The notes under the pieces: generated by a model
The model's database searches: none
Told to the model about the DNA's origin: nothing
What the model saw: the letters and a program-made list of their open reading frames with translations, nothing else
Made by a program: the position numbers and the translations under genes
Part shown: positions 1 through 39,248 of the stretch, piece after piece
Numbering within the stretch: position 1 is the stretch's first letter
Layout: each line of letters opens with the position of its first letter
Assembly: GCF_000026545.1 (NCBI RefSeq)
Contig: NC_011601.1
Length of the DNA stretch: 64,000 nt
Reading direction: 5' to 3' (one strand)
DNA from: Escherichia coli O127:H6 str. E2348/69
GTDB taxonomy: Bacteria; Pseudomonadota; Gammaproteobacteria; Enterobacterales; Enterobacteriaceae

Positions 1-60
1 TTAAGCGAAGTCATCCACGAAGCAGCAATGGCCTTGAATAATAAAGCATTACACGGATAA
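1..60 (+). CDS. Possible 3' end of an upstream gene truncated by the window edge (frame 1 ends ...LSEVIHEAAMALNNKALHG, stop at 58-60)
   Basis: Open frame from position 1 to TAA at 58-60, 21 nt before the RBS/ATG of the next gene; too short to identify; a different frame also ends at 39-41. Confidence 0.25.
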   Translation, partial: LSEVIHEAAMALNNKALHG

Positions 61-81
61 CACATACCACTGAGGGAATAT

Positions 82-1251
82 ATGAATTTACATGAGTATC
101 AGGCCAAATCGTTACTGGCTGGCATGGGGATGCCGTGTCCAAAAGAGATAGCCATCCAACAGATTTCGCAACTGGCAGATGCCTGGCAACATATTGCTTG
201 CCCGAGTAAAGGCGCGGTACTTAAAGCGCAGGTACATGCTGGTGGGCGCGGTAAAGCTGGCGGCGTAAAAGTGCTTAAGCAGCTGCCGGAAGCACAGGCT
301 TTTGTACAGCAAATGTTGGGATCGCAACTGGTGACTTATCAGACCGGGCCAGAAGGACAGTATGTCAGCAGTATTTTACTGTGCGAAAACATTTATCCGG
401 TACGCCAGGAACTCTATTTTGGCATGGTGGTGGATCGTGAAAGCCAGCGGGTCACGTTTATTGTCAGCCCGGAAGGTGGTGTGGAAATTGAAAAAGTCGC
501 CCATGAGACACCGGAGAAAATCAGCAGTGTCAGCATTGATCCACTGACAGGCGTGCAGCCTTGCCATATCCGAGAAATGTTTGCTGTTCTGCAACTGGAA
601 CACGGACTATTTGCTGCCTTTAGTCGCCTGGTTAATCAGGCGTGGAAAGCCTTTAACGAACTGGATTTTGCCCTGCTGGAAATTAACCCTCTGGTGTTGC
701 GGGAAACGGGCGAATTTATGTGTGCAGACGCGAAAGTATCGCTGGATGATAACGCGCTGTATCGTCACCCGGAACTCCAGGTGCTACGTGATGAAACCCA
801 GGAAGATCCACGCGAAAGCCAGGCAGCGAAGCTTGATCTTAATTATGTCTCGCTGGACGGAAATATCGGCTGCATGGTCAATGGTGCAGGGCTGGCTATG
901 GCAACCATGGACATCATCAAGCTATACGGTGAACAACCCGCAAACTTCCTGGATGTTGGCGGTGGCGCAACCCAGGAGCGCGTCAGTGAAGCCTTTCGGC
1001 TGATTGTTTCCGACGGCAAAGTGAAAGCCATTCTGGTTAATATTTTTGGTGGGATTGTCCGTTGCGACATGATCGCCAGAGCCATTATTCATGCTCTGAA
1101 TGAGGCCCGTATCACCCTGCCTGTCGTGGTGCGTCTCTCCGGTAATAACGCTGCCGAAGGGCAGCGGTTACTGGCAGAAAGTGGCCTGACGGTGGAAGCC
1201 GTCAATTCTCTGGATGATGCCGCTAAACGCATCATTGCGTTACTGAATTAA
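82..1251 (+). CDS. Succinyl-CoA synthetase beta subunit paralogue (ADP-forming, SucC-like), accessory island
   Basis: 389 aa; N-terminus MNLHEYQAKSLLAGMGMP is the classic SucC start; ATP-grasp-like sequence throughout; GAGGGAA RBS upstream; immediately followed by a SucD-like gene. Confidence 0.9.
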   Translation: MNLHEYQAKSLLAGMGMPCPKEIAIQQISQLADAWQHIACPSKGAVLKAQVHAGGRGKAGGVKVLKQLPEAQAFVQQMLGSQLVTYQTGPEGQYVSSILLCENIYPVRQELYFGMVVDRESQRVTFIVSPEGGVEIEKVAHETPEKISSVSIDPLTGVQPCHIREMFAVLQLEHGLFAAFSRLVNQAWKAFNELDFALLEINPLVLRETGEFMCADAKVSLDDNALYRHPELQVLRDETQEDPRESQAAKLDLNYVSLDGNIGCMVNGAGLAMATMDIIKLYGEQPANFLDVGGGATQERVSEAFRLIVSDGKVKAILVNIFGGIVRCDMIARAIIHALNEARITLPVVVRLSGNNAAEGQRLLAESGLTVEAVNSLDDAAKRIIALLN

Positions 1252-1263
1252 CAGGAGGTTAAG

Positions 1264-2136
1264 ATGAGCGTTTTGATCAACAAACACACGCGGGTACTGG
1301 TGCAGGGCATTACCGGCAAAAACGGCACATTTCATACAGAGCAGGCTATTGCGTATGGCACGCAGATTGTGGGTGGAGTGACGCCAGGTAAGGGCGGGCA
1401 ACGGCATCTGGATCGCCCGGTTTTTGATTCAATGAAAGAAGCGATGCGACAAACTGAGGCTGATGCCAGCGTGATTTATGTGCCTGCACCGTTTGTGCTG
1501 GATTCTGTTGTTGAGGCTATTGAAGCTGGCGTCAAATTGGTTGTGGTGATCACTGAAGGTGTACCGACACTGGATATGGTGAAAGTTCGTCGGCTGCTTG
1601 ACTGCCACCCGGATGTGCGGCTGATTGGGCCAAACTGCCCAGGAGTTATCACGCCGGGTGAGTGCAAAATCGGGATTATGCCTGGTGAAATCCACCGCCC
1701 AGGGCGTATTGGGATTGTTTCCCGCTCCGGTACATTAACCTACGAAGCTGTAGCGCAAACCACGGCGCTGGGACTTGGGCAATCCACCTGTATTGGTATT
1801 GGCGGCGATCCGGTTCCGGGGACTAACTTTATTGATGCGCTGCGTTTATTCGAAAATGATCCGCAAACAGACGCGGTAATTATGATCGGTGAAATTGGTG
1901 GTAATGCGGAAGAACGGGCCGCGGAATTTATTCGTCATGAAATGAATAAACCGGTCGTAGGTTATATTGCCGGTGTTACTGCACCAAAAGGAAAACGCAT
2001 GGGACACGCCGGAGCCATTATTTCTGGCGGTAGCGGCAGTGCGGAGGATAAATTCCGGGCGTTCGATAAAGCAGGCATGGCATGGACACGAAATCCAGCA
2101 TTACTTGGCGAAACGTTATGGAATGTTATTAAGTAA
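1264..2136 (+). CDS. Succinyl-CoA synthetase alpha subunit paralogue (SucD-like)
   Basis: 290 aa; CoA-binding N-terminus ([15 protein letters not shown]) and phospho-histidine loop GHAGAII; AGGAGG RBS at 1254-1259; 12 nt after the beta subunit stop. Confidence 0.9.
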
Positions 2137-2153
2137 TCCATAAATGAATATCA

Positions 2154-2179
2154 AGGGAGCATATCGCTCCCTTTTTTTA
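2154..2179 (+). terminator. Rho-independent terminator after the sucCD-like pair
   Basis: GC hairpin (GGGAGC...GCTCCC) followed by a run of seven T. Confidence 0.55.
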
Positions 2180-2212
2180 TCTGTGTGGTAAGGGAATCAT
2201 CTTTTAATAACT

Positions 2213-2230
2213 GTGCGGAAAACCGCGCAT
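2213..2230. promoter_or_regulatory. Palindrome TGTGCGGAAAACCGCGCA, candidate enhancer (UAS) for a sigma-54 activator
   Basis: Near-perfect inverted repeat about 65 bp upstream of the sigma-54 -24 element at 2292; sigma-54 activator sites are typically palindromic and upstream. Confidence 0.3.
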
Positions 2231-2291
2231 AAAATAAAAAGGATAAATAGCTAACTCATTAAATAACAAAGCGTTATTAAAAAATTAAAGA

Positions 2292-2307
2292 TGGCATAGC
2301 TCCTGCA
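2292..2307 (+). promoter_or_regulatory. Sigma-54 (RpoN) -24/-12 promoter, TGGCAT-N5-CTGCA, for the transporter/dehydrogenase genes
   Basis: GG at 2293-2294 and GC at 2305-2306 with exact 10-nt spacing; about 40 bp upstream of the transporter start; a sigma-54 activator is encoded nearby (4921-6279). Confidence 0.55.
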
Positions 2308-2347
2308 ATAGCCAGGCAGGTTTTTTATTTTTCACAATGAGGTGAAT

Positions 2348-3847
2348 ATGTCATCAATATCCCATGGCGCACCACAAAAGCGTCGAATTATCCCTAATCC
2401 CGGCCTGTGGTTGGCGATCATTGCCGGAATTATTATTACCCTTCTGCCACTGGGCGATACCTTGCCCGTCGCCGGACAAAATATGATCGCCATTCTGGTG
2501 TTTGCCATTATTGTCTGGATCAGCGAAGCGATGGATTACACCGCCAGTGCAATTGTTATTTCCGCACTGATTATCTTTATGGTTGGTTTTGCCCCGGATA
2601 TGAATCACCCGGACACGATCCTTGGCACCGCGAAAGCGCTGAAAATGACTCTGTCGGGTTTTTCTAATTCTGCTCTGGCGCTGGTGGCAGCAGCAATGTT
2701 TATCGCGGCGGCAATGACCATTACCGGGCTGGATAAACGCATTGCGCTGTTTACTATGTCGAAAATAGGTGCCAGCAGCCGCAGCATTATTATCGGTGCC
2801 ATTGTGGTGACCATCGTCCTGAGCCTGGTCGTACCCAGTGCCACTGCCCGTACGGCTTGCGTGGTGCCGATTATGATGGGGGTCATTGCGGCATTTAAGG
2901 TGGATAAACATTCACGTTTAGCGGCGTCAATGATGATTGTTATCGCCCAGGCGACCAGTATCTGGAAAGTTGGTATTCAAACTTCGGCGGCGCAAAACCT
3001 GCTTTCTATCGGTTTTATCAATAAAACTTTCGGCGCCGGGCATTCTGTCAGCTGGCTTGACTGGCTGTTAGCGGGCGCGCCCTGGAGCCTCACCATGTCG
3101 GTGATCCTCTATTTCCTCGCACGTAAATTGTTGCCGCCAGAAACGGAAGCTGTTGAAGGGGGGAGCGAGGCCATTAAAAAAGCACTCGCAGAGTTAGGGC
3201 CAACCACCGGTAAAGAAAAACGCTTGATCGGTATTTCGCTGTTGTTACTGCTCTTTTGGTCTACTGGCGGAAAATTGCACAGTATTGATACCACCTCTGT
3301 CACCCTTGCCGGACTGGCGATTATGTTGCTGCCAGGCATCGGTGTAATGAGCTGGAAAGAGGTCGAAAAACGTGTGCAGTGGGGCACGTTGCTTATGTTT
3401 GGTATTGGTATCAGCCTGGGGTCCACGTTGCTTGATACACAGGCAGCTTCATGGATGGCGAACTATGTGGTGAAAGGTTTTGGTCTCGATGGCTTGCCAT
3501 CATTAGCCATCTTCGCGATTCTCGCCGCTTTCTTGATAATCATTCACCTGGGGTTTGCCAGTGCCACTGCGCTAACTGCCGCATTGCTGCCCATCCTGAT
3601 TAGCCTGTTAAGCAGTCTGCCGCCAGAACTCGGCGTTAACCCGGTCGGCATGACCATTCTGCTCGCCTTCAGTGTCAGTTTTGGCTTCATCCTGCCGATT
3701 AACGCGCCACAAAATATGGTGTGTATGGGTACGGATACCTTCACGCCACGCCAGTTTACCCGTGTGGGACTGTACCTGACGGTGATCGGCTACCTGTTGT
3801 TGCTACTGTTTGCCGCCACCTGGTGGAAAATTTTAGGTCTAATGTGA
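2348..3847 (+). CDS. Anion transporter, probably divalent anion:Na+ symporter (DASS/CitT-like) family; candidate alpha-ketoglutarate/dicarboxylate importer
   Basis: About 499 aa, highly hydrophobic with many predicted TM helices; ATG at 2348 preferred over in-frame GTG at 2342 (AGG RBS at 2340-2342); family assignment from overall resemblance, not a search. Confidence 0.75.
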   Translation: MSSISHGAPQKRRIIPNPGLWLAIIAGIIITLLPLGDTLPVAGQNMIAILVFAIIVWISEAMDYTASAIVISALIIFMVGFAPDMNHPDTILGTAKALKMTLSGFSNSALALVAAAMFIAAAMTITGLDKRIALFTMSKIGASSRSIIIGAIVVTIVLSLVVPSATARTACVVPIMMGVIAAFKVDKHSRLAASMMIVIAQATSIWKVGIQTSAAQNLLSIGFINKTFGAGHSVSWLDWLLAGAPWSLTMSVILYFLARKLLPPETEAVEGGSEAIKKALAELGPTTGKEKRLIGISLLLLLFWSTGGKLHSIDTTSVTLAGLAIMLLPGIGVMSWKEVEKRVQWGTLLMFGIGISLGSTLLDTQAASWMANYVVKGFGLDGLPSLAIFAILAAFLIIIHLGFASATALTAALLPILISLLSSLPPELGVNPVGMTILLAFSVSFGFILPINAPQNMVCMGTDTFTPRQFTRVGLYLTVIGYLLLLLFAATWWKILGLM

Positions 3848-3858
3848 GGAAACCAACG

Positions 3859-4932
3859 ATGTCATTACAAATTGCTGTTGAAAAAGTGCGTTGGTTAGCT
3901 GCCGGGCTGCTGGAACTTAATGGCTGTGATGCCGATATCGCTCAGGATGTGGCGGAACATATGATTGAAGCGGAACGTTATGGTTTTGCCAGCCACGGCG
4001 TCACGCTGCTACCGAAATATCTGGAAAATATCGCTCGTGGCGATGTAACCGCGAATGCCCGCCCGGAATGCTTAACAAGTGAAGGTAATTTACAACGTTT
4101 TCATGCCCACAATGGCTTTGGTCAACACGCCGGAAAAGTGGCGGTAAATGCTGCCATCGAACAAACAAAACACCGCGGTTTTTGCCTGTTAACGTTGTGC
4201 CATGCGCATCATTTAGGGCGTATGGGGCATTACGGGCAAATGGTTGCTGATCAAGGCCTGGCGATGCTGGCCATGAGTAACGTCACCGGGCGTCCGGCAC
4301 TGGTCGCCCCGTGGGGCGGTGCGGAACCGCGTATGACCACTAACCCTTTCTGCTTTGCCTGGCCGTTCAGTGATGGGCGTCCGCCGATTCTGGTTGATTT
4401 TGCCACCAGTAGCATGGCGCTAAATAAAGCACGGGTAATGTCGTCCACCGGGAAGCAGGCCGCGCCGGGACAATTGATCGATGCACAGGGGAATCCAAGC
4501 AATGATCCTGGGGTGTTATTCAGCAATCCTCCAGGGGCGTTACTGCCATTTGGTGAGCATAAAGGATTTGGCCTGGCACTGATGATTGAAATGATGGCGG
4601 GGATCTTATCTGGTGGTGACACGATCGCCGAAGATCATCAGACGGATGGATCTGCGCATAATCATCTTTTTGCGTTGATTATCGATCCTGATCAATTCAC
4701 CGATCTGGCAGGGGAGAAAGGGCAGTTCTTTGCGGATTATCTGTTAGCTACGCAGCCTCAACCTGGCGGCAATCCGGTGATTTACCCCGGTATGCCAGAA
4801 GCTGCCAACCGGGAACGCAATGCGAAGATGATTACGATCCCGGTATCATTCTGGTCCTGGGTAGTTGAACATTACGCCCGCAAAGGTATCGATTTGGGGT
4901 TACATCCTCAGGAATCAGCATTAGCTGGATGA
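3859..4932 (+). CDS. Ldh2-family (malate/L-lactate/ureidoglycolate dehydrogenase-like) NAD(P)-dependent oxidoreductase
   Basis: 357 aa from ATG 3859, with GAGGAA RBS 9 nt upstream and 11 nt after the transporter stop; the track ORF 3721-4932 has an N-terminal extension overlapping the transporter and is rejected; conserved HGxxxxPKY-type region (FASHGVTLLPKY). Confidence 0.75.
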   Translation: MSLQIAVEKVRWLAAGLLELNGCDADIAQDVAEHMIEAERYGFASHGVTLLPKYLENIARGDVTANARPECLTSEGNLQRFHAHNGFGQHAGKVAVNAAIEQTKHRGFCLLTLCHAHHLGRMGHYGQMVADQGLAMLAMSNVTGRPALVAPWGGAEPRMTTNPFCFAWPFSDGRPPILVDFATSSMALNKARVMSSTGKQAAPGQLIDAQGNPSNDPGVLFSNPPGALLPFGEHKGFGLALMIEMMAGILSGGDTIAEDHQTDGSAHNHLFALIIDPDQFTDLAGEKGQFFADYLLATQPQPGGNPVIYPGMPEAANRERNAKMITIPVSFWSWVVEHYARKGIDLGLHPQESALAG

Positions 4933-6279
4933 TTCTGGTCGATAAACTTGCGGTTGAATCTGATGTTTGTTGAGTTTGTCATATAAAGTCTTGCGCGGCA
5001 GCTGTAATAGCCGCGCTGTCAAACTGACCTGGCCTTCCGTTTGTCGCAGCATATCTTCGATTAACTTTTTCTCGAAAGCATCAATGCAGGCGGTAAGGCC
5101 ACTCTCTTCTTGCTGAGTCATTGGTACTGGCTGGTGGTGGGTCAGTAAACCGAGAACAAAACGCTCTGCATTGTGTTTAAGTTCACGTACATTGCCAGGC
5201 CAACTTTGTGACTGCAACCAGGCCAGTAACATGGGAGAAATATCAGGCAGAGGACGATTATATTTTTGTGCCGCCTGACTGGCGAACCAGTAAAACAGTT
5301 CAGGGATATCTTCTCGTCGTTGGCGTAGAGGTGGAATATTCAGGCTAACCACATTCAGACGATAATAGAGATCGAGACGAAACAGATGTTCTTCGCTGCG
5401 ACGCAGTAAATCTTCCTTGGTCGCTGCAATAACACGGCAATTCACCGGAATTAATTGATTGGCACCTAATCGTTCAATGGTTCTTTCCTGCAATACACGT
5501 AGCAGTTTTACCTGCATTCCTGATGGCATTCCCTCTATTTCATCGAGAAATAACGTACCACCATTTGCATGTTCAATTTTTCCAATACGCTTTTTAACCG
5601 CACCGGTAAATGCGCCCGCCTCATGACCAAATATTTCGCTTTCAAACAACGTTTCTGGTAAGCCTGCACAGTTTAAGGCAACAAACTGCCCCTGACGGCG
5701 GGTACTCCAGTGATGCAGCATTCTGGCGACGACTTCTTTACCACAACCTGTTTCACCATAAATAAGGACATCGGCACCGGTATCTGCGACATTAAGGATC
5801 ATTTTACGCAGTTGTTGCATCTGCGGACTACGACCAATCAGCACCGGGCCATTTTCCTGTTGCAGATTCGCCAGTAATTGCTGATTTTCTAAAACCAATC
5901 GCCGTTTTTCTACCGCTCTGGCAATAATACTCAATAATTTATCTGAGCTACTTGGTTTCTCAATGAAATCGAATGCACCATTACGCATGGCATCCACCGC
6001 CATTTCCACGTCACCGTGTCCGGTAATTAAAATAACCGGAATTTTGCTATCCATTTCGTTGATGTAACTGAGGAGCTCTAGTCCTGATATTCCAGGTAAC
6101 CTGACATCGGTCAGTATAATAATGTTGGCCTGACTTTGAATAAGGGGAATACTGTGTTCTGCATCGCAACAGGAAATAACACGATAACCAGCCAGCGTGA
6201 GCGTTTGTTCACAGGCAAAACGTACATCGTCACTATCCTCAATATAAACTATAGTAATTTCACTGGATTTATTATTCAT
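4921..6279 (-). CDS. kguR: Sigma-54-dependent response regulator (NtrC family: receiver + AAA+ sigma-54 activator + HTH); consistent with KguR
   Basis: 452 aa; receiver domain with conserved D (IIILTDVRLPG); Walker A GETGCGKE; GAFTGA sigma-54 contact motif; C-terminal HTH; stop overlaps the 3' end of the convergent dehydrogenase gene. Confidence 0.8.
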   Translation of the reverse strand: MNNKSSEITIVYIEDSDDVRFACEQTLTLAGYRVISCCDAEHSIPLIQSQANIIILTDVRLPGISGLELLSYINEMDSKIPVILITGHGDVEMAVDAMRNGAFDFIEKPSSSDKLLSIIARAVEKRRLVLENQQLLANLQQENGPVLIGRSPQMQQLRKMILNVADTGADVLIYGETGCGKEVVARMLHHWSTRRQGQFVALNCAGLPETLFESEIFGHEAGAFTGAVKKRIGKIEHANGGTLFLDEIEGMPSGMQVKLLRVLQERTIERLGANQLIPVNCRVIAATKEDLLRRSEEHLFRLDLYYRLNVVSLNIPPLRQRREDIPELFYWFASQAAQKYNRPLPDISPMLLAWLQSQSWPGNVRELKHNAERFVLGLLTHHQPVPMTQQEESGLTACIDAFEKKLIEDMLRQTEGQVSLTARLLQLPRKTLYDKLNKHQIQPQVYRPESSS

Positions 6280-8092
6280 GTTCTTCTCCCCATTCAGGCC
6301 AGGTTAATGTCATTACTGCGCCGCCTTCAGGATGATTACTGGCGTGGAGTGCGCCGTTCGAATTTCGGACAATTTCGCTGACTATTGCCAGTCCCAACCC
6401 CATTCCTCTACGTTTAGTGGTAAAAAATGGTTCAAATATGCGATCGACAACTTCAGGTGCAAAACCGCCACCGCTGTCTTTAATGGTAATAATAACTTTG
6501 TTATTTGCCTGGCGAATGGCGATATCCAGTCGTTTGTAAGAGCTACCTTCCATAGAATCTAAGGCGTTGCTAATTAAATTACTGAATATCTGTTCAAGAC
6601 CGAGCTCATCGCAATTGACAAATAACGGCATGGATGGGGCTTTTATTCGTCGCTCAATATTATTTTTCTCCATGCTGTGATTAAGTAACGCCACGGCGCT
6701 ATACATCACTTTGATGACATCGGCAGAACCTTTAGGTACGCGATGGCGCGAGGCAAATGCTTTAAGTTCGGAAATGAGCTGCGTCATCCGCTCAATCACT
6801 GAAATAATGTGTTTCAGATTCTGTTCAACCTGCGGATACATCTCTTTTTTTAGCATAGTACGCGCGTTATCAGTAAGTGCGTGAATGGCGGCTAACGGTT
6901 GATTTTGTTCATGGGCAATTTCGGTTGCCATCTGTCCAAGCGCCGCCAGTTTGCTGGACTCTGCCAGTTCACTACGCGTAATTTGTAATACTTGTTCAGC
7001 CTGACTGCGCTCTTTTATCTCCTGTATTAATTTTTGATTGATCAATTCCAGGGCAGATGTACGCTCTTTAACCTGTTTCTCTAATGTTTCATTCGCCAGT
7101 GTTAATAATTGTTGTGCATGAGATCGCATTCTCCAGTATTTAATAAATAACAAAAACAGCAGGTAAATAATTAGCGTAATGACTAACGAAATAGCCCATG
7201 ACCAGTACAGGTTATCTAAGGGGACCATAATTGTCATTTTCCAGTTAAATTCTGGAATGGCTATTTGTTGCGTATAATATTGCGGGAATAAACAGAGTTG
7301 TTCTTTTTTATCTTTCAGGAAAGTAAAATTGCTCACGGTATAACAGGGATAATAATCCGCCGGTAAAAGATTGTCGAGACTATATTGGCGGGTAGATTGT
7401 AGTTTTTGTTTTGCCTGAACAGGTAACGGTTGCAGTGTTCGCATTCGCCATGGCGATTTTGAACTTAAAAATATAATCCCATGTTCATCATTCACGATAA
7501 TATTTTCAGGACCTTCGGCCCATGCTTTTTCAATTTCATTAAGACTTATTTTTACTACTACAACACCGACAATTTTTCCTTTATCTTTTATACTTGTAGA
7601 GAGGAAGAATCCCGGTGTATTCGTAGTGCTACCAATACCGTAAAAGCGTCCATTTAAGCCAGACATGGCGTGTTTATAATAGGGGCGATAGCTATAATTT
7701 TGCCCTACATAGCTGCCGGGGTCCTGCCAGTTGCTAGAAGCGATGGCCTTACCTTGGGTATCCAGAATAAATATTGCTGCGGTTTTGAGTTGAGTATTGA
7801 AATGTGCAATTCGTTGATTGAGTTCGCTGGACATCATATCGTCAGGCGTAATTACCGCCTGACGGATGATATGGTCTGTTGAGAGCATATAGGGTAAAAC
7901 ATAAAATTGCTCGATGGTGGAATATAATGTGGACTTATACATTTCAAGCCGCATTTTATCGGTACCGGACAAGGTATTAAAACGCAAGTGCAAAAAAGCG
8001 ATTGAAACCGCGAGCATGATAAGAAAAAGTGAAATGCTTGTAATGTGAAATCGCCATTTGTTCTTAAATATATAATTCCACGATATTTTCAT
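6272..8092 (-). CDS. kguS: Membrane sensor histidine kinase with periplasmic sensing domain; consistent with KguS
   Basis: 606 aa; two TM segments flanking a roughly 260-aa periplasmic region; H-box (ATEIAHEQNQPL) and HATPase_c motifs; 8-nt overlap with the downstream regulator gene. Confidence 0.8.
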   Translation of the reverse strand: MKISWNYIFKNKWRFHITSISLFLIMLAVSIAFLHLRFNTLSGTDKMRLEMYKSTLYSTIEQFYVLPYMLSTDHIIRQAVITPDDMMSSELNQRIAHFNTQLKTAAIFILDTQGKAIASSNWQDPGSYVGQNYSYRPYYKHAMSGLNGRFYGIGSTTNTPGFFLSTSIKDKGKIVGVVVVKISLNEIEKAWAEGPENIIVNDEHGIIFLSSKSPWRMRTLQPLPVQAKQKLQSTRQYSLDNLLPADYYPCYTVSNFTFLKDKKEQLCLFPQYYTQQIAIPEFNWKMTIMVPLDNLYWSWAISLVITLIIYLLFLLFIKYWRMRSHAQQLLTLANETLEKQVKERTSALELINQKLIQEIKERSQAEQVLQITRSELAESSKLAALGQMATEIAHEQNQPLAAIHALTDNARTMLKKEMYPQVEQNLKHIISVIERMTQLISELKAFASRHRVPKGSADVIKVMYSAVALLNHSMEKNNIERRIKAPSMPLFVNCDELGLEQIFSNLISNALDSMEGSSYKRLDIAIRQANNKVIITIKDSGGGFAPEVVDRIFEPFFTTKRRGMGLGLAIVSEIVRNSNGALHASNHPEGGAVMTLTWPEWGEEHE

Positions 8093-8272
8093 TCATCATC
8101 CATTGAATGCATTTATATTTATCATCAGTATATTCCCTGAACAATGTTTGCGAGAACCAAAAGAGTGCCATTGTGTGAATGTGTAAGCAGAATAACCGTG
8201 GCAATGTGTGGTTTATCGCACAGGTATTCCAAATGTGATCATGCTCTTTTTATGTGACAAATCCGCAGATAA

Positions 8273-9082
<810 letters not shown>

Positions 9083-34177: not shown

Positions 34178-34882
34178 TTAATCCATCCGATGTTCCCCCT
34201 TTTCCATGGCGTCGCGATCAAAAAATCGCTGAATTTTTCCCTCGGACATCAATGCCGCTCGATCAGACATATGCGCGATGACATCGGCATCGTGACTGAC
34301 CAGCAGATATGTCATTTGGTGTTCCAGCTTAAGTTGATTCAACAAATTAAGGATTTCCGCTTGTACCGACATATCCAACGCCGAGGTGGGTTCATCCAGC
34401 AGAAGAAGTTGTGGTCGTAACAACAGGGCGCGAGCAATAACCACACGTTGCCGTTGACCACCGGAAAGCTGGTGTGGGTAGCGACGAGCGGCGTCGAAAG
34501 GCAAGCCAACCTGTTCCAGTGCAGTCTGGACGCGTTTTTCTATTTCTCTTTCGCCACGAATTTTGAGTGGTTCAGCCAGCGTTCGCCACAGAGTATGATT
34601 GGGATGCAACGAGGCATAGGGATCCTGAAACACCATTTGCACATTGCGGCGGAGATCGCCCTGAAAACGCATTCCTGGTTTGATGGTGTGCCCAAACAGT
34701 GACACCTGACCGTGCCAGTCGCGCTGTAATCCAGCAATTACGCGCAAAATCGTGGATTTTCCGCAGCCTGATTCGCCAATTAAACTAAATGTCTCTCCGG
34801 CATTAACCGAAAAACTGGCGGCAGAAACTGCGGTTTTCTCAGCAAAAGTCACCTGTAAGTGATTAATTTCAACAATCGTCAT
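34178..34882 (-). CDS. ABC transporter ATP-binding protein (DppF/OppF-like), accessory operon
   Basis: 234 aa; Walker A GESGCGKST, signature LSGGQRQR, Walker B LLLLDEPTSALD. Confidence 0.85.
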   Translation of the reverse strand: MTIVEINHLQVTFAEKTAVSAASFSVNAGETFSLIGESGCGKSTILRVIAGLQRDWHGQVSLFGHTIKPGMRFQGDLRRNVQMVFQDPYASLHPNHTLWRTLAEPLKIRGEREIEKRVQTALEQVGLPFDAARRYPHQLSGGQRQRVVIARALLLRPQLLLLDEPTSALDMSVQAEILNLLNQLKLEHQMTYLLVSHDADVIAHMSDRAALMSEGKIQRFFDRDAMEKGEHRMD

Positions 34883-35705
34883 GGTATTTCTCCGGCGTCA
34901 TTGCCGTCCTGTCCAGCGTCGGCAGCATCTGCCCGTAAGTTTGTGCATTTGGGCGGCAAGTCCACAGTGTGCGCGTGTAAGGATGCGTTGCTGTAGGTAG
35001 CGCAGCAGCGTGCATTTCATCCACCTTATTTCCCTGATACATCACCAGCACCCGATGGCAAAATTGGGCAACTAATGGCAGGTCGTGACTGATCAGCAAC
35101 ATTGCCATCTGACGTTGTTCACACTGGGTAACCAGCAGTTCCAGAATCTGATTACGCAGGCGCACATCCAGTGCTGATGTTGGCTCATCGGCAATCAATA
35201 CCCGGGGATCGTTGATGAGCGCAATTGCAATCATCACTCGCTGCCCCATGCCGCCAGAAAGTTCACGAGGATAGCTTTGCAGTACTCGCGTATTGAGGCC
35301 GACAGCCTGAATTGCGGTGTTTATTTTCTCTTCTTTCTCGCGGCGGTTCAGACGTTGATGGAGCGTAAGCGCCTCTTCCAGTTGCGCTTTTACTGTCTTT
35401 ACTGGATTAAGCGCGTAACGCGGATCTTGCAATACCATCGCGATATCGTTACCGCGCAACTGTTGCCATCCACGCGCGTTAAGGGTGAGTGCATCACGCC
35501 CCAGAATGTTAAGTGTGTCCGCGGTTACTACACCCGGTTTACGCACCAGCCCCATCAGGGCGCGGGCGGTCATGGACTTACCTGAACCCGACTCACCGAC
35601 CAGCGCCAGACGTTCATTGCCTAATGTAAAACTGACATTGTTGACGACCCGGGACTCCGGATAATCGACGCAGAGATTGTTGATACTAAGACGTGAGTCA
35701 GTCAT
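34869..35705 (-). CDS. ABC transporter ATP-binding protein (DppD/OppD-like), accessory operon
   Basis: About 278 aa from ATG 35705 (MTDSRLSINNL); Walker A GESGSGKS, signature LSGGMGQR; track start 35765 would overlap the upstream permease. Confidence 0.8.
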   Translation of the reverse strand: MTDSRLSINNLCVDYPESRVVNNVSFTLGNERLALVGESGSGKSMTARALMGLVRKPGVVTADTLNILGRDALTLNARGWQQLRGNDIAMVLQDPRYALNPVKTVKAQLEEALTLHQRLNRREKEEKINTAIQAVGLNTRVLQSYPRELSGGMGQRVMIAIALINDPRVLIADEPTSALDVRLRNQILELLVTQCEQRQMAMLLISHDLPLVAQFCHRVLVMYQGNKVDEMHAAALPTATHPYTRTLWTCRPNAQTYGQMLPTLDRTAMTPEKYHDDC

Positions 35706-36531
35706 GTTGAGGCTCCAGAACATCGCGCAAGCCATCACCCAGCAGATTAAAGGCCAGACTGGCAATTAAGATAATTGCGCCGGGAGCGGCGGCAATCCAC
35801 CATTGATCAAAAATGACCTGCATACCGTCGGCGATCATGGCTCCCCATTCCGCCATTGGCGGGCGAGCACCAAGCCCAAGAAAACCCAGGCCAGCAGCCG
35901 CCAGAATGATACCCGCTAAATCCAGCGCCAGACGGACAATGGCAGATGGCAGGCACAATGGCAAAATATGACCAGCCAGCAGACGCCTGCCGCGGATGCC
36001 CATCATTTCTGCGGCGGCAAGATAATCACTGTGTCGCAGACGTTGGATCTCACTCCGTGCCTGACGCGCATAAGCAGGCCAGGTGGTTAATGCCAGCGCC
36101 AGTGCGCCGTTAACCAGCCCCGGCCCCAGCATGGCAACAAAAGCAAAAGCCAGAATTAAACGCGGCATTGACATTACTACGTCAGTAAAACGCATCAGCA
36201 CGCGTTCCAGCCAGCCGCCGTAGTACCCGGCTAAAATGCCAATCAGCAGACCGACCGGGAGTGTAATGATTGTCACCAATGCCACCAGCCCCAGTGCCGG
36301 GCGGCTGCCGTAGATTAAACGTGAAAGTAGGTCTCGCCCGTAACTGTCAGTGCCGAGCCAGTGCTGACGACTCGGTGCTTGTAACCGCGCCGCCGCATCC
36401 TGCCAGTTAGGATCGTGAGGTGCCAGCCACGGCGCGAAGAGCGCAATTAGCATCAATAACAGGATAATTATCAACCCGCAAAACGCGGCGGGTGAATGGC
36501 GTAAACGGCGTAAAAAGAGAAACATCGGCAT
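35698..36531 (-). CDS. ABC transporter permease (DppC/OppC-like)
   Basis: 277 aa; six predicted TM helices; ends 2 nt after the next gene's start codon. Confidence 0.85.
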   Translation of the reverse strand: MPMFLFLRRLRHSPAAFCGLIIILLLMLIALFAPWLAPHDPNWQDAAARLQAPSRQHWLGTDSYGRDLLSRLIYGSRPALGLVALVTIITLPVGLLIGILAGYYGGWLERVLMRFTDVVMSMPRLILAFAFVAMLGPGLVNGALALALTTWPAYARQARSEIQRLRHSDYLAAAEMMGIRGRRLLAGHILPLCLPSAIVRLALDLAGIILAAAGLGFLGLGARPPMAEWGAMIADGMQVIFDQWWIAAAPGAIILIASLAFNLLGDGLRDVLEPQHD

Positions 36532-37580
36532 CAGCGTAACCTCGGATCGGTCAGCCGGACCAGCAGGTCGGTTAAGTTATTTATCAACACAAAGCAGACG
36601 CCAATCAGCAGCGTTCCTCCCATGATTGCTGTGGTATCACCCGCGAAGAGCGCTGTAGTGAGGTAGCGCCCAATACCTGGCCATGAAAAGACGGTTTCTG
36701 TCAGTACCGCGCCTTCCAGCATTGATGTATAGGCGAGGGCGATAACGGTGAGTAAGGTGCCGCGAATGTTGGGTAAAACATGACGTAGCAAAATTGTCAT
36801 CTCGCTGGCCCCTTTGGCGCGCGCCAGCAGAATATATTCTTTATTCATTTCGCCAAGACAGACGGAACGAGTCAGGCGCGTAATACTGGCGAGCGAGAAG
36901 TACGCCAGTAATAAAACCGGAAGTATCAAATGGTTGATTGCATTGGTAAATGCCTCGCGATCGCCAGAAAGCCACGTATCAATCAGCGCAAATCCGCTGC
37001 GGGGTTCTATGGTGAATTGATAAATATCATCCAGCCTGCCCGGCCCGGCACTCCATTGCAGTCTGGCGTAGAACAGCGCCAGCATCAGCAGACCAAGCCA
37101 AAAAACAGGGACGGAATTTCCCAGTAGAGTTAATGTTCGCACGGTGAAATCCAGCGGAGAACCGACATAACGGGCGCAAAGTACACCCGCAATGACGCCG
37201 ACAACAGCACCGACAATAAGCGCCAACGTTGCCAGTTCAATGGTCGCCGGGAATGCTGATAGCAAGTCCTGGAGTACCGGTTGCCCGGTGGAGCTGGCGA
37301 TGCCCAGATCGCCGTGTGCCAGATTCATCAGGTAATGCCAGAACTGGACGGCTAACGGTTGATCCAATCCTAACTGGTGGCGTACCTGATCATAGGTGGA
37401 CTGGCTGGCGTGATCGCCAACGATTTGTAGTACGCGATCGACCGGTGAGAGAGCCGAAAGCGCAAAGGTAATCAGCAGCAGGCCGAGTAGCGTCAGAGCA
37501 ACGGTAAACAGCCCTTGCAACAGCGCGAGCAGAGGGCGTTTGCCTCGCCATCTCGCGCGAGTGGAAAAAACGACAGACAT
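36531..37580 (-). CDS. ABC transporter permease (DppB/OppB-like)
   Basis: About 349 aa from ATG 37580 (GGAAAG RBS); in-frame ATG at 37673 would add 31 aa and lacks an RBS; start uncertain. Confidence 0.75.
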   Translation of the reverse strand: MSVVFSTRARWRGKRPLLALLQGLFTVALTLLGLLLITFALSALSPVDRVLQIVGDHASQSTYDQVRHQLGLDQPLAVQFWHYLMNLAHGDLGIASSTGQPVLQDLLSAFPATIELATLALIVGAVVGVIAGVLCARYVGSPLDFTVRTLTLLGNSVPVFWLGLLMLALFYARLQWSAGPGRLDDIYQFTIEPRSGFALIDTWLSGDREAFTNAINHLILPVLLLAYFSLASITRLTRSVCLGEMNKEYILLARAKGASEMTILLRHVLPNIRGTLLTVIALAYTSMLEGAVLTETVFSWPGIGRYLTTALFAGDTTAIMGGTLLIGVCFVLINNLTDLLVRLTDPRLR

Positions 37581-37679
37581 GATCTTTCCATACAGTGATA
37601 AATCAGCGGCTGGCCTGCAATACAGGCCAGCCCTGGTACCGCGCCCGGTAATATGGCTGGACGCGAGTTGCATACAGGG

Positions 37680-39248
37680 TTATTTGGTTACCTGATCAAA
37701 CCAGACCATATCGGCATTCAACCCTTGTTGATACCCCTGCACATTATCACGCATGACAATTTGCGTTTTGCCTTGATCAATAAAGACATACGGGGAACTA
37801 CGTTGTAGTTCTTGTTGCATTTTCTTATACAAATCAAGACGTTTAGCGCTATCAGGTTCAGCGATGGCCGCCAGCGTTTCTTTGTTCAGTTCCGGGATTT
37901 TCCAGCCGTTTAACCCGGCAACGGTGCTGGATTTGCCATCGTTATAGGCGAAAGAGCTGGCGTTGGAATGTGCGTCAAAATAATCAGGCAACCACATACG
38001 AATGGCCCCCTGATGCTGGTGGGCGCGAACGCGAGAGTAGACCTGACTCCCTGCGGCTGGCAGCAAATCAACTTTTACACCGCCCTGAGCAAAGCTGGCC
38101 TGAATTGACTGCGCGATGGTAATAAATGGCGGTTTATTTTCGACATCAAGCGTGAAGTGCGGGTCTTTGATTCCGGCTTTAGCGAGGATCTCTTTTGCTT
38201 TGGCTGGATTAAAGGTAAACGGTGTTTCTTCCAGTGCTCCAGGAAAGCCCACGGGCAGGAAACTTTGATGGGTAAAATATTGTCCTTTTAAGAGATTTTT
38301 GGTGATGCCGTCGTAATCGACCAACCAGCGAGCGGCCTCCCAGAACGCAGGATTACTCATCAGCGGGTTATCCTTGTTACCGGTATTGAAGGCCAGGTAG
38401 TTCTGTTCGGCGGAGGCAATGCTCATCACTTTTACGCCAGGTTTACCCTGTAATGCATCGATTTGATCGGCTCCCAGATCACGAGCCATATCAGCATCAC
38501 CTTGTTGGATCAGCAGGCGACGCGTTGCCGGATCGGGAACATTTTTGATGATGACGTTTTTCAGTTTCGGGGCGCCGGTTGGTGAGCTGGCGTTGGCTTC
38601 CATCACGATGGCCTGATGCGGTTGGTAAGTACGCATTTTAAACGCGCCGCTGCCAGCGGAATGCATCTTCAGCCATTCATTACCAAAGTCGTTATTTTTG
38701 GCGTTTGGCGCAACCAGCTTCTCGTCAACAATTGAGGCGATTGGTGTGGAGAGAATATTCAGTGCCAGCGCCGGGCTGACGTCGGCACTCCATTGCACCT
38801 GGACGGTATGGTCATCGATTTTCTTCAACTGGCTGGCGATATTTTCCGGCTGCCATCCCAGCACATTGAGAATAAACGCACCGGATTTATTCAGTGTGAC
38901 AGCCCGGACATAAGAGTAAATCACATCTTCCGGGCGTACCGGATTACCAGAGGCAAATTTCGCATCGCTTTTCAGTTTTATGGTTAGCGTTTTGGCTGCT
39001 GGGTCAGCCTGCCAACTTTCCGCCAGAATCGGAGTGATTTTCGTCGGATCATTACGGTCCGGTTGTACTACGCGTTGATACAGACTTGGTACAGTCTGAA
39101 TACTTGAGAGTTCATTAGCTTCTGCCGGGTCCAGACTCACAATATCATCCAGTCCCTGGGCTACAACCAACGTATTAGGCGGTGTAGCGGCAACGGTTGT
39201 GGCGGAAATTGTGCTTAAAACCAGTAAAGGTAATAGTTTTTTAATCAT
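37680..39248 (-). CDS. Periplasmic substrate-binding protein, family 5 (peptide/nickel/opine type)
   Basis: 522 aa; signal peptide MIKKLLPLLVLSTISATTVAA; size and composition typical of DppA/OppA-like proteins; clearly not NikA-like at the N-terminus. Confidence 0.8.
   Translation of the reverse strand: MIKKLLPLLVLSTISATTVAATPPNTLVVAQGLDDIVSLDPAEANELSSIQTVPSLYQRVVQPDRNDPTKITPILAESWQADPAAKTLTIKLKSDAKFASGNPVRPEDVIYSYVRAVTLNKSGAFILNVLGWQPENIASQLKKIDDHTVQVQWSADVSPALALNILSTPIASIVDEKLVAPNAKNNDFGNEWLKMHSAGSGAFKMRTYQPHQAIVMEANASSPTGAPKLKNVIIKNVPDPATRRLLIQQGDADMARDLGADQIDALQGKPGVKVMSIASAEQNYLAFNTGNKDNPLMSNPAFWEAARWLVDYDGITKNLLKGQYFTHQSFLPVGFPGALEETPFTFNPAKAKEILAKAGIKDPHFTLDVENKPPFITIAQSIQASFAQGGVKVDLLPAAGSQVYSRVRAHQHQGAIRMWLPDYFDAHSNASSFAYNDGKSSTVAGLNGWKIPELNKETLAAIAEPDSAKRLDLYKKMQQELQRSSPYVFIDQGKTQIVMRDNVQGYQQGLNADMVWFDQVTK

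Follow-up and report, generated by a model that had tools for sequence, protein, structure and literature searches.

Uropathogenic Escherichia coli CFT073 carries the c5032-c5041 island, the closest described counterpart of the locus analysed here. RT-PCR places c5032-5037 in one operon and c5038-5039 in a separate one; both are anaerobically induced by alpha-ketoglutarate, do not respond to 2-hydroxyglutarate, glutamate, glutarate, fumarate, or succinate, and depend for induction on KguR (C5040) as regulator and KguS (C5041) as sensor (PMC3694859). Without c5032-5037, anaerobic growth on alpha-ketoglutarate is impaired, and without c5032-5039 it is abolished, while growth on succinate, fumarate, and malate is unchanged; in mouse urinary tract infection, the island is a contributor to fitness (PMC3694859). 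C5038 is an anaerobic alpha-ketoglutarate transporter with an RpoN-dependent promoter, whose transcription start lies 30 nt 5' of the start codon (PMC5318444). KguR recognizes the consensus TGTG(T/C)G-N5-15-C(G/A)C(G/A)CA, and in a kguR mutant the alpha-ketoglutarate utilisation group, including c5032-c5037, changes by a mean log2 fold change of -8 (PMC8716947). The products C5032-C5037 are likely to stand in for SucABCD and yield ATP (PMC8716947).

Within this set, C5036 and C5037 were termed a “putative” succinyl-CoA synthetase (SCS) by the authors who described the island (Cai et al. 2013, PLoS Pathog, PMC3694859). The literature found on the CFT073 locus reports neither a purified-enzyme assay of C5036/C5037 nor a single-gene deletion of c5036 or c5037; its genetics concern the whole c5032-5037 operon.

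The KguS/KguR island of E2348/69

The window, i.e., the whole stretch of 64,000 nucleotides analysed here, matches the chromosome of enteropathogenic E. coli O127:H6 strain E2348/69 at 100%, and its first part contains the same island. Over window positions 1-8400, the CFT073 locus aligns with 99.4% DNA identity and no gaps, and the six island proteins that the window encodes share 99.4-100% of their residues with those of CFT073. SucC shares 388 of its 389 residues with C5036 (G312 is a serine in CFT073), while SucD is identical to C5037 over all 290 residues, the two having a common accession (WP_000114648.1). The island pair is C5036/C5037 of the published alpha-ketoglutarate utilisation island and is, as such, already known. 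Because this near-identical locus was published between 2013 and 2021 (PMC3694859; PMC5318444; PMC8716947), no new system is added here.

The E2348/69 annotation gives the order tyrB, 2-oxoglutarate dehydrogenase E1-E2-E3, sucC-sucD, a DASS transporter, an Ldh_2 oxidoreductase, kguR-kguS, and aphA. In a blastn comparison with the K-12 tyrB-aphA region, the 13.7-kb segment between these two genes stands in place of 966 bp of unrelated DNA with yjbS, in which neither blastn (word size 7) nor tblastx detects remnants of the island. The placement of the pair on an island, as proposed in a preliminary description made from the window sequence, is thereby borne out. Only the end of the E3 gene falls inside the window, its TAA stop codon occupying positions 58-60, and the E1 and E2 genes lie farther upstream. 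Since the dehydrogenase genes are off the left window edge, that description could not name the island substrate. The features of the locus are collected in Table 1.

Table 1. Coordinates of island features in the E2348/69 window
Feature	Position	Strand	Basis and remarks
3' end of island dihydrolipoyl dehydrogenase (E3, lpdA-like; c5035)	1..60	+	RefSeq annotation; gene spans window -1358..60, cut by left window edge
Island sucC, SCS beta subunit (ATP-grasp; CFT073 C5036)	82..1251	+	ORF, 389 aa
Island sucD, SCS alpha subunit (CFT073 C5037)	1264..2136	+	ORF, 290 aa
SucD phospho-histidine loop GHAGAII	2002..2022	+	SucD residues 247-253; alignment to housekeeping SucD and PDB 1JKJ_A
Intrinsic-terminator-like hairpin and T run, 17 nt past sucD stop	2153..2182	+	Terminator scan, inverted-repeat search
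KguR binding site of c5038 promoter (TGTGCGGAAAACCGCGCA)	2212..2229	+	Matches published consensus and published CFT073 site
Candidate sigma-54 type -24/-12-like element 5' of transporter gene (TGGCATAGCTCCTGCA)	2292..2307	+	Pattern match, 2 mismatches
DASS-family dicarboxylate transporter (C5038)	2348..3847	+	Pfam Na_sulph_symp, NCBIfam TIGR00785; 498/499 identical to CFT073
Ldh_2 family (malate/L-lactate dehydrogenase-like) oxidoreductase (C5039)	3859..4932	+	PF02615; 355/357 identical to CFT073
kguR, sigma-54-dependent response regulator (c5040)	4921..6279	-	Pfam Response_reg, Sigma54_activat, HTH_8; 452/452 identical to CFT073
kguS, Cache-domain sensor histidine kinase (c5041)	6272..8092	-	Pfam dCache_1, HisKA, HATPase_c; 604/606 identical to CFT073
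KguR autoregulation site 5' of kguS (TGTGTGGTTTATCGCACA)	8205..8222	-	Same as published CFT073 site
Right island boundary	8230..8231	.	blastn; K-12 homology from window 8231 on, upstream of aphA

The terminator-like hairpin behind sucD fits both the end of the c5032-c5037 operon and the two-operon structure. The spacing between the candidate sigma-54 element and the published c5038 transcription start is as expected. A scan of the whole window with the sigma-54 consensus gave 38 matches against 44.7 expected, no better than chance, so that only its coincidence with the published c5038 promoter speaks for the element. The Ldh_2 protein C5039 scores under all NCBIfam equivalog cut-offs.

Family membership and catalytic residues of the island pair

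The island proteins have the domain composition of a two-subunit SCS, with Pfam ATP-grasp_2 and Ligase_CoA in SucC and CoA_binding and Ligase_CoA in SucD. Measured against the curated equivalog cut-offs of NCBIfam, SucC reaches 530.1 bits over residues 1-388 with the model for the beta subunit of ADP-forming succinate--CoA ligase (NF001913, cut-off 370) and 491 bits with TIGR01016 (cut-off 375.6). SucD matches the succinate--CoA ligase alpha models NF004230 and TIGR01019 over its full length, with 469.7 bits for NF004230 (cut-off 336). The crystal structures of E. coli SCS are likewise matched at full length, 1JKJ_B by SucC and 1JKJ_A by SucD (both E = 1e-130). The best structural match is the SCS of PDB 6MGG/6PFN; 6MGG outscores the E. 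coli enzyme for the beta subunit (472 vs 439 bits) and for SucD (476 vs 438 bits).

The housekeeping enzyme is encoded in the same genome by the sdhCDAB-sucABCD cluster at 669-679 kb of NZ_LT827011.1 (sucABCD, 673043-679205), so that the island genes do constitute a second SucC/SucD pair, as first proposed. Identity to the housekeeping subunits is 56% for SucC (71% positives) and 67% for SucD (83% positives). These positives reproduce the published description of the CFT073 pair as “70% and 83% similar” to the housekeeping subunits (PMC3694859). On account of the identity values, the pair is divergent and not a recent duplication. Duplication of the housekeeping sucCD in recent time is ruled out by the same values together with saturated dS.

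Despite this divergence, all catalytic and ligand residues compared with the housekeeping enzyme are kept. In housekeeping numbering, SucC retains Pro20, Lys46, the GGRGK loop, Glu99, Glu107, Glu197, Asn199, and Asp213, and SucD retains Cys123, His142, Ser153, Thr155, Glu208, and His246. By alignment, the ATP-grasp lysine Lys46, the catalytic Glu197, and the Mg ligands Asn199 and Asp213 of SucC correspond to island K48, E200, N202, and D216, while the phospho-histidine His246-alpha, Glu208-alpha, and Cys123-alpha of SucD correspond to island H248, E210, and C125. The preliminary description had called the pair clearly divergent yet in possession of the catalytic hallmarks, namely the ATP-grasp and the GHAGAII loop, and both statements agree with these alignments: neither near-identity to the housekeeping copies nor loss of any of the catalytic residues compared is seen. 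From homology and operon position, we infer that the island SucCD has succinyl-CoA synthetase activity.

Acyl and nucleotide specificity

The divergence of the pair from the housekeeping enzyme had been read as a sign of a dedicated CoA ligase or synthetase with, possibly, an altered acyl or nucleotide specificity. With respect to the acyl group, this would make the pair, for example, a malate-, glutarate-, 2-hydroxyglutarate-, or itaconate-CoA ligase that activates another island substrate in place of acting on succinyl-CoA. Such a reading could draw on the mere 56% identity between the two SucC proteins, on the 445 bits (445.1) that island SucC also attains on the model for the malate--CoA ligase beta subunit (MtkA; NF010647), on the presence in the island of an Ldh_2 oxidoreductase with no assigned substrate, and on the absence of C5036/C5037 enzymology from the literature found. 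The malate--CoA ligase score, however, misses the cut-off of 604 by far, which rules out that identity, whereas the cut-off of the succinate--CoA ligase equivalog is exceeded. In GCMVNGAGLAM and NIFGGIVRCD, two segments which we take from the pig and E. coli structures to line the succinate site, island and housekeeping SucC are identical. The genetic context points the same way, the pair being co-transcribed behind a full 2-oxoglutarate dehydrogenase set that makes succinyl-CoA. In CFT073, moreover, alpha-ketoglutarate induces the operon but 2-hydroxyglutarate, glutarate, glutamate, succinate, and fumarate do not, and loss of the operon affects only anaerobic growth on alpha-ketoglutarate, sparing growth on succinate, fumarate, and malate. 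A ligase for a different acyl group is thus very improbable. The proposal of a dedicated enzyme holds insofar as the pair serves the island pathway; the part that foresaw an altered acyl specificity for an unidentified substrate finds no support in the upstream E1/E2/E3 genes, the malate--CoA ligase score, or the presumed succinate-site motifs.

A second alternative retains the reaction and shifts the nucleotide. E. coli SCS accepts ATP as well as GTP; the island enzyme could instead use ATP strictly or favour GTP, as an adjustment to anaerobic energy conservation. Because of the 56% identity of SucC and a 2-residue insertion in that subunit, different kinetics or a different nucleotide preference are possible. 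The insertion stretch (CPSKGAVLK, residues 41-48) has a lysine among its two inserted residues, adjoins the ATP-grasp lysine, and is near or at the beta-42 rim position that was proposed as an electrostatic gatekeeper in the Blastocystis SCS (PMC2440562). In addition, Asp103 of E. coli SucC aligns with Pro106 of the island protein. Pro20-beta, which is present in ATP-specific and non-specific enzymes alike (cf. PMC2440562), is kept in island SucC. Against a shift stand the placement of island SucC in the ADP-forming equivalog by NCBIfam and the main message of the Blastocystis work, that nucleotide choice is not reliably predictable from sequence (PMC2440562). A changed nucleotide preference has a small chance of being correct, and the favoured reading is an SCS with the ordinary reaction.

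Selection, distribution, and relatives

Comparison of the island pair with its orthologues in E. albertii, Citrobacter koseri, and Brenneria populi gives dN/dS values of 0.03-0.13, which indicate strong purifying selection on island sucC and sucD. Of 5426 complete E. coli genomes, 1045 carry the island segment (query, window positions 1-8200); coverage of the 8.2-kb query is at least 80% in 1044 of these, and 905 of them show 99% identity or more. PLSDB returns two matches, E. coli records of 27 kb and 834 kb described as “non-mobilizable”, which resemble pieces of chromosome that were deposited as plasmids.

These data bear on whether the pair might be a redundant or degenerating copy that serves no separate function. 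It would be in keeping with dispensability that the housekeeping sucCD of the genome is fully functional and that ~81% of complete E. coli genomes lack the queried segment. The reading frames are nevertheless intact, the catalytic residues are kept, the dN/dS values are low, and all carriers but one have at least 80% of the segment. In CFT073, the pair belongs to the group with a strong expression change in the kguR mutant, a value given at group level (PMC8716947), and deletion of its operon has a phenotype (PMC3694859). A pseudogene or decaying copy is ruled out by the intact frames, the conserved catalytic residues, and the dN/dS range. In our view, the selection and expression data refute a decaying duplicate, and the chance that the pair lacks a function of its own is close to negligible.

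Beyond E. coli, a protein search recovers a discrete clade of island-type SucC at 70-99% identity, with members in E. coli, Citrobacter koseri, and Brenneria populi as well as a Klebsiella spallanzanii protein. A scan of genome contigs for SucC relatives, taking the best 600 candidates, gives the same picture among the matches listed, with E. albertii at 97%. Below this clade, there is a gap down to about 60%, where the housekeeping SucC proteins of Neisseriales and Acinetobacter begin. Neither the protein search nor the genome-scan matches listed contain a member of the island-type clade beyond Enterobacterales. The same two sources allow no donor lineage to be named, the distance to the ~60% relatives being too large.

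In all island-type SucC relatives examined, sucCD lies behind an E1-E2-E3 set and is accompanied by a DASS transporter. C. koseri has the ten-gene module at tyrB-aphA, and in E. albertii it adjoins tyrB. The module of Brenneria populi is at a different site, and a second, variant cassette in Brenneria is preceded by genes for a DASS transporter and an RraA-like protein and followed by one for a LysR regulator. It is conceivable, though not likely, that the Escherichia/Citrobacter lineage had the module at tyrB-aphA ancestrally and that most E. coli have since lost it, in which case it would not be a gain of uropathogenic strains. The intact island of the enteropathogenic E2348/69, of E. albertii, and of Citrobacter koseri also offers a modest correction to the literature, in that the island is not confined to uropathogenic strains.

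Proposed role

As the pair is co-transcribed directly 3' of its own E1/E2/E3 genes, the substrate fed to it would be succinyl-CoA derived from alpha-ketoglutarate. It is very probable that the two genes, the last of the c5032-c5037 operon, act on this succinyl-CoA within an anaerobic module. The island substrate is alpha-ketoglutarate, and the acyl-CoA is most likely ordinary succinyl-CoA.

The steps of such a module can be outlined as follows. Under anaerobiosis, the housekeeping sucABCD would be repressed, alpha-ketoglutarate would be sensed by KguS, and KguR together with sigma-54 would turn on the island. The DASS transporter C5038 would import alpha-ketoglutarate, which the island E1/E2/E3 complex would oxidise to succinyl-CoA. 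Island SucCD would then use succinyl-CoA, ADP, and phosphate to form succinate, CoA, and ATP via phospho-His248 of SucD. Of this scheme, the regulation and the phenotype at operon level have been demonstrated in CFT073. The predicted outcome is ATP from substrate-level phosphorylation and a link between the oxidative TCA branch and the reductive one. In this role, the locus would enable certain lineages of E. coli to draw ATP from alpha-ketoglutarate, a metabolite plentiful in the kidney, at times when their usual TCA enzymes are shut down, and it contributes, in CFT073, to urinary tract infection fitness.

A more elaborate version, doubtful when taken as a whole, would treat the island as a self-contained anaerobic energy module in which (i) SucCD is the sole ATP-yielding step, (ii) the DASS transporter exchanges alpha-ketoglutarate for succinate in the manner of the citrate/succinate antiporter CitT, (iii) the island dehydrogenase and SCS yield ATP and NADH, (iv) the Ldh_2 protein C5039 re-oxidises NADH on a 2-oxo acid, and (v) the lysine-bearing insertion at the ATP-grasp rim shifts the nucleotide preference of the SCS.

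Comparison with known systems

The locus between tyrB and aphA, the ten-gene order, and the KguR sites are all the same as in the CFT073 c5032-c5041 island (PMC3694859). The hosts differ: E2348/69 is the prototype enteropathogenic strain, whereas CFT073 is uropathogenic and the source of all experiments. The island would be expected to behave in E2348/69 as it does in CFT073.

Outside Enterobacterales, the closest SucC proteins among the matches listed (~60%) come from the housekeeping operons of Neisseriales, Acinetobacter, and Pseudomonas. These sucA-sucB-lpd-sucC-sucD operons share with the island the five-gene order E1-E2-E3-sucC-sucD. Unlike the island, they are single-copy housekeeping operons, and their flanks of up to 10 kb per side (shorter at contig ends) contain no homologues of the DASS transporter, Ldh_2 protein, or KguS/KguR.

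With the housekeeping SucC/SucD of E. coli (1SCU, 2SCU, 1JKJ, 1CQI), the island pair has in common the fold, the two-subunit architecture, the catalytic residues, and the phospho-histidine mechanism, and the reaction is predicted to be the same. They differ in that the island operon, unlike housekeeping sucABCD, includes an E3 gene placed between those for E2 and SucC, and in that island SucC, unlike its housekeeping counterpart, has the 2-residue insertion just N-terminal to the ATP-grasp lysine. Their control differs as well, in that housekeeping sucABCD is described as anaerobically repressed (PMC8716947), whereas under anaerobiosis alpha-ketoglutarate switches the island genes on via sigma-54 and KguR. 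Nothing indicates a different chemistry, and the demonstrated difference between the island and housekeeping enzymes is one of regulation.

Distribution of the island in E. coli

In the prototype enteropathogenic strain E2348/69, the island between tyrB and aphA is intact (window 1-8230) and shares 99.4% identity with its counterpart in the uropathogenic strain CFT073. Of the 5426 E. coli genomes available in complete form, 1045 carry the corresponding DNA (window 1-8200), among them isolates from dogs and chickens. The spread of the island looks tied to lineage rather than to pathotype. Both E2348/69 and CFT073 belong to phylogroup B2. The G+C content falls to 41% in the kguS region (window 6001-8000) versus about 49-51% in the remaining island and its neighbourhood.

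Shared chromosomal site and possible age of the island

The module also occurs in other species. In Citrobacter koseri it lies at tyrB-aphA, the same chromosomal site as in E. coli (locus L085, 4556-18004), and in Escherichia albertii it adjoins tyrB (locus L005, 4618-12055). Between E. coli and C. koseri, the island genes have dS values of 1.3-2.3, similar to the 1.6 of the flanking tyrB, with dS being saturated. Given the common site and the similar divergence of island and flank, ancestral presence followed by loss in most E. coli is as plausible as recent acquisition, the saturated dS values not being decisive between the two.

Cassette organization in Brenneria populi

The Brenneria populi assembly GCA_036016275.1 harbors two island-type E1-E2-E3-sucC-sucD copies in a single genome (loci L087, 2304-13190, and L088, 4579-18197). 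One copy is accompanied by DASS and Ldh_2 genes and a sigma-54 two-component system, while the other is preceded by genes for a DASS transporter and an RraA-like protein and followed by one for a LysR regulator. The regulators of the two copies are unlike, and the dehydrogenase-plus-synthetase cassette has thus been placed under the control of different regulators.

The Ldh_2 oxidoreductase and neighboring variable DNA

The highest NCBIfam score of the island oxidoreductase C5039 is 277 bits versus a cut-off of 336 (malate/lactate/ureidoglycolate dehydrogenase). This protein could serve as the NADH sink of the pathway.

Coordinates of the Ldh_2 oxidoreductase gene and the ABC transporter cluster
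Feature	Window position	Strand	Remark
C5039, Ldh_2 family oxidoreductase	3859-4932	+	under all NCBIfam equivalog cut-offs
ABC transporter cluster of five genes (two for ATPases, two for permeases, one for a substrate-binding protein)	about 34178-39248	-	between yjcO and fdhF

The ABC transporter cluster is a further strain-variable islet; it is missing from K-12, where yjcO adjoins fdhF. Upstream of the window, the interval between alr and tyrB contains two additional genes (E2348/69 locus L001, 684-2242), one for a pnuC-like nicotinamide riboside transporter and the other for an ATPase of the AAA family. Both genes are found in E2348/69 and CFT073 and are missing from K-12.

An insertion in the island SucC

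Directly N-terminal to its ATP-grasp lysine, the island succinyl-CoA synthetase beta subunit carries a two-residue insertion with a lysine (CPSKGAVLK, residues 40-48; window 199-225). The insertion corresponds in position to the beta-42 "gatekeeper" put forward for nucleotide choice in the Blastocystis succinyl-CoA synthetase (PMC2440562).
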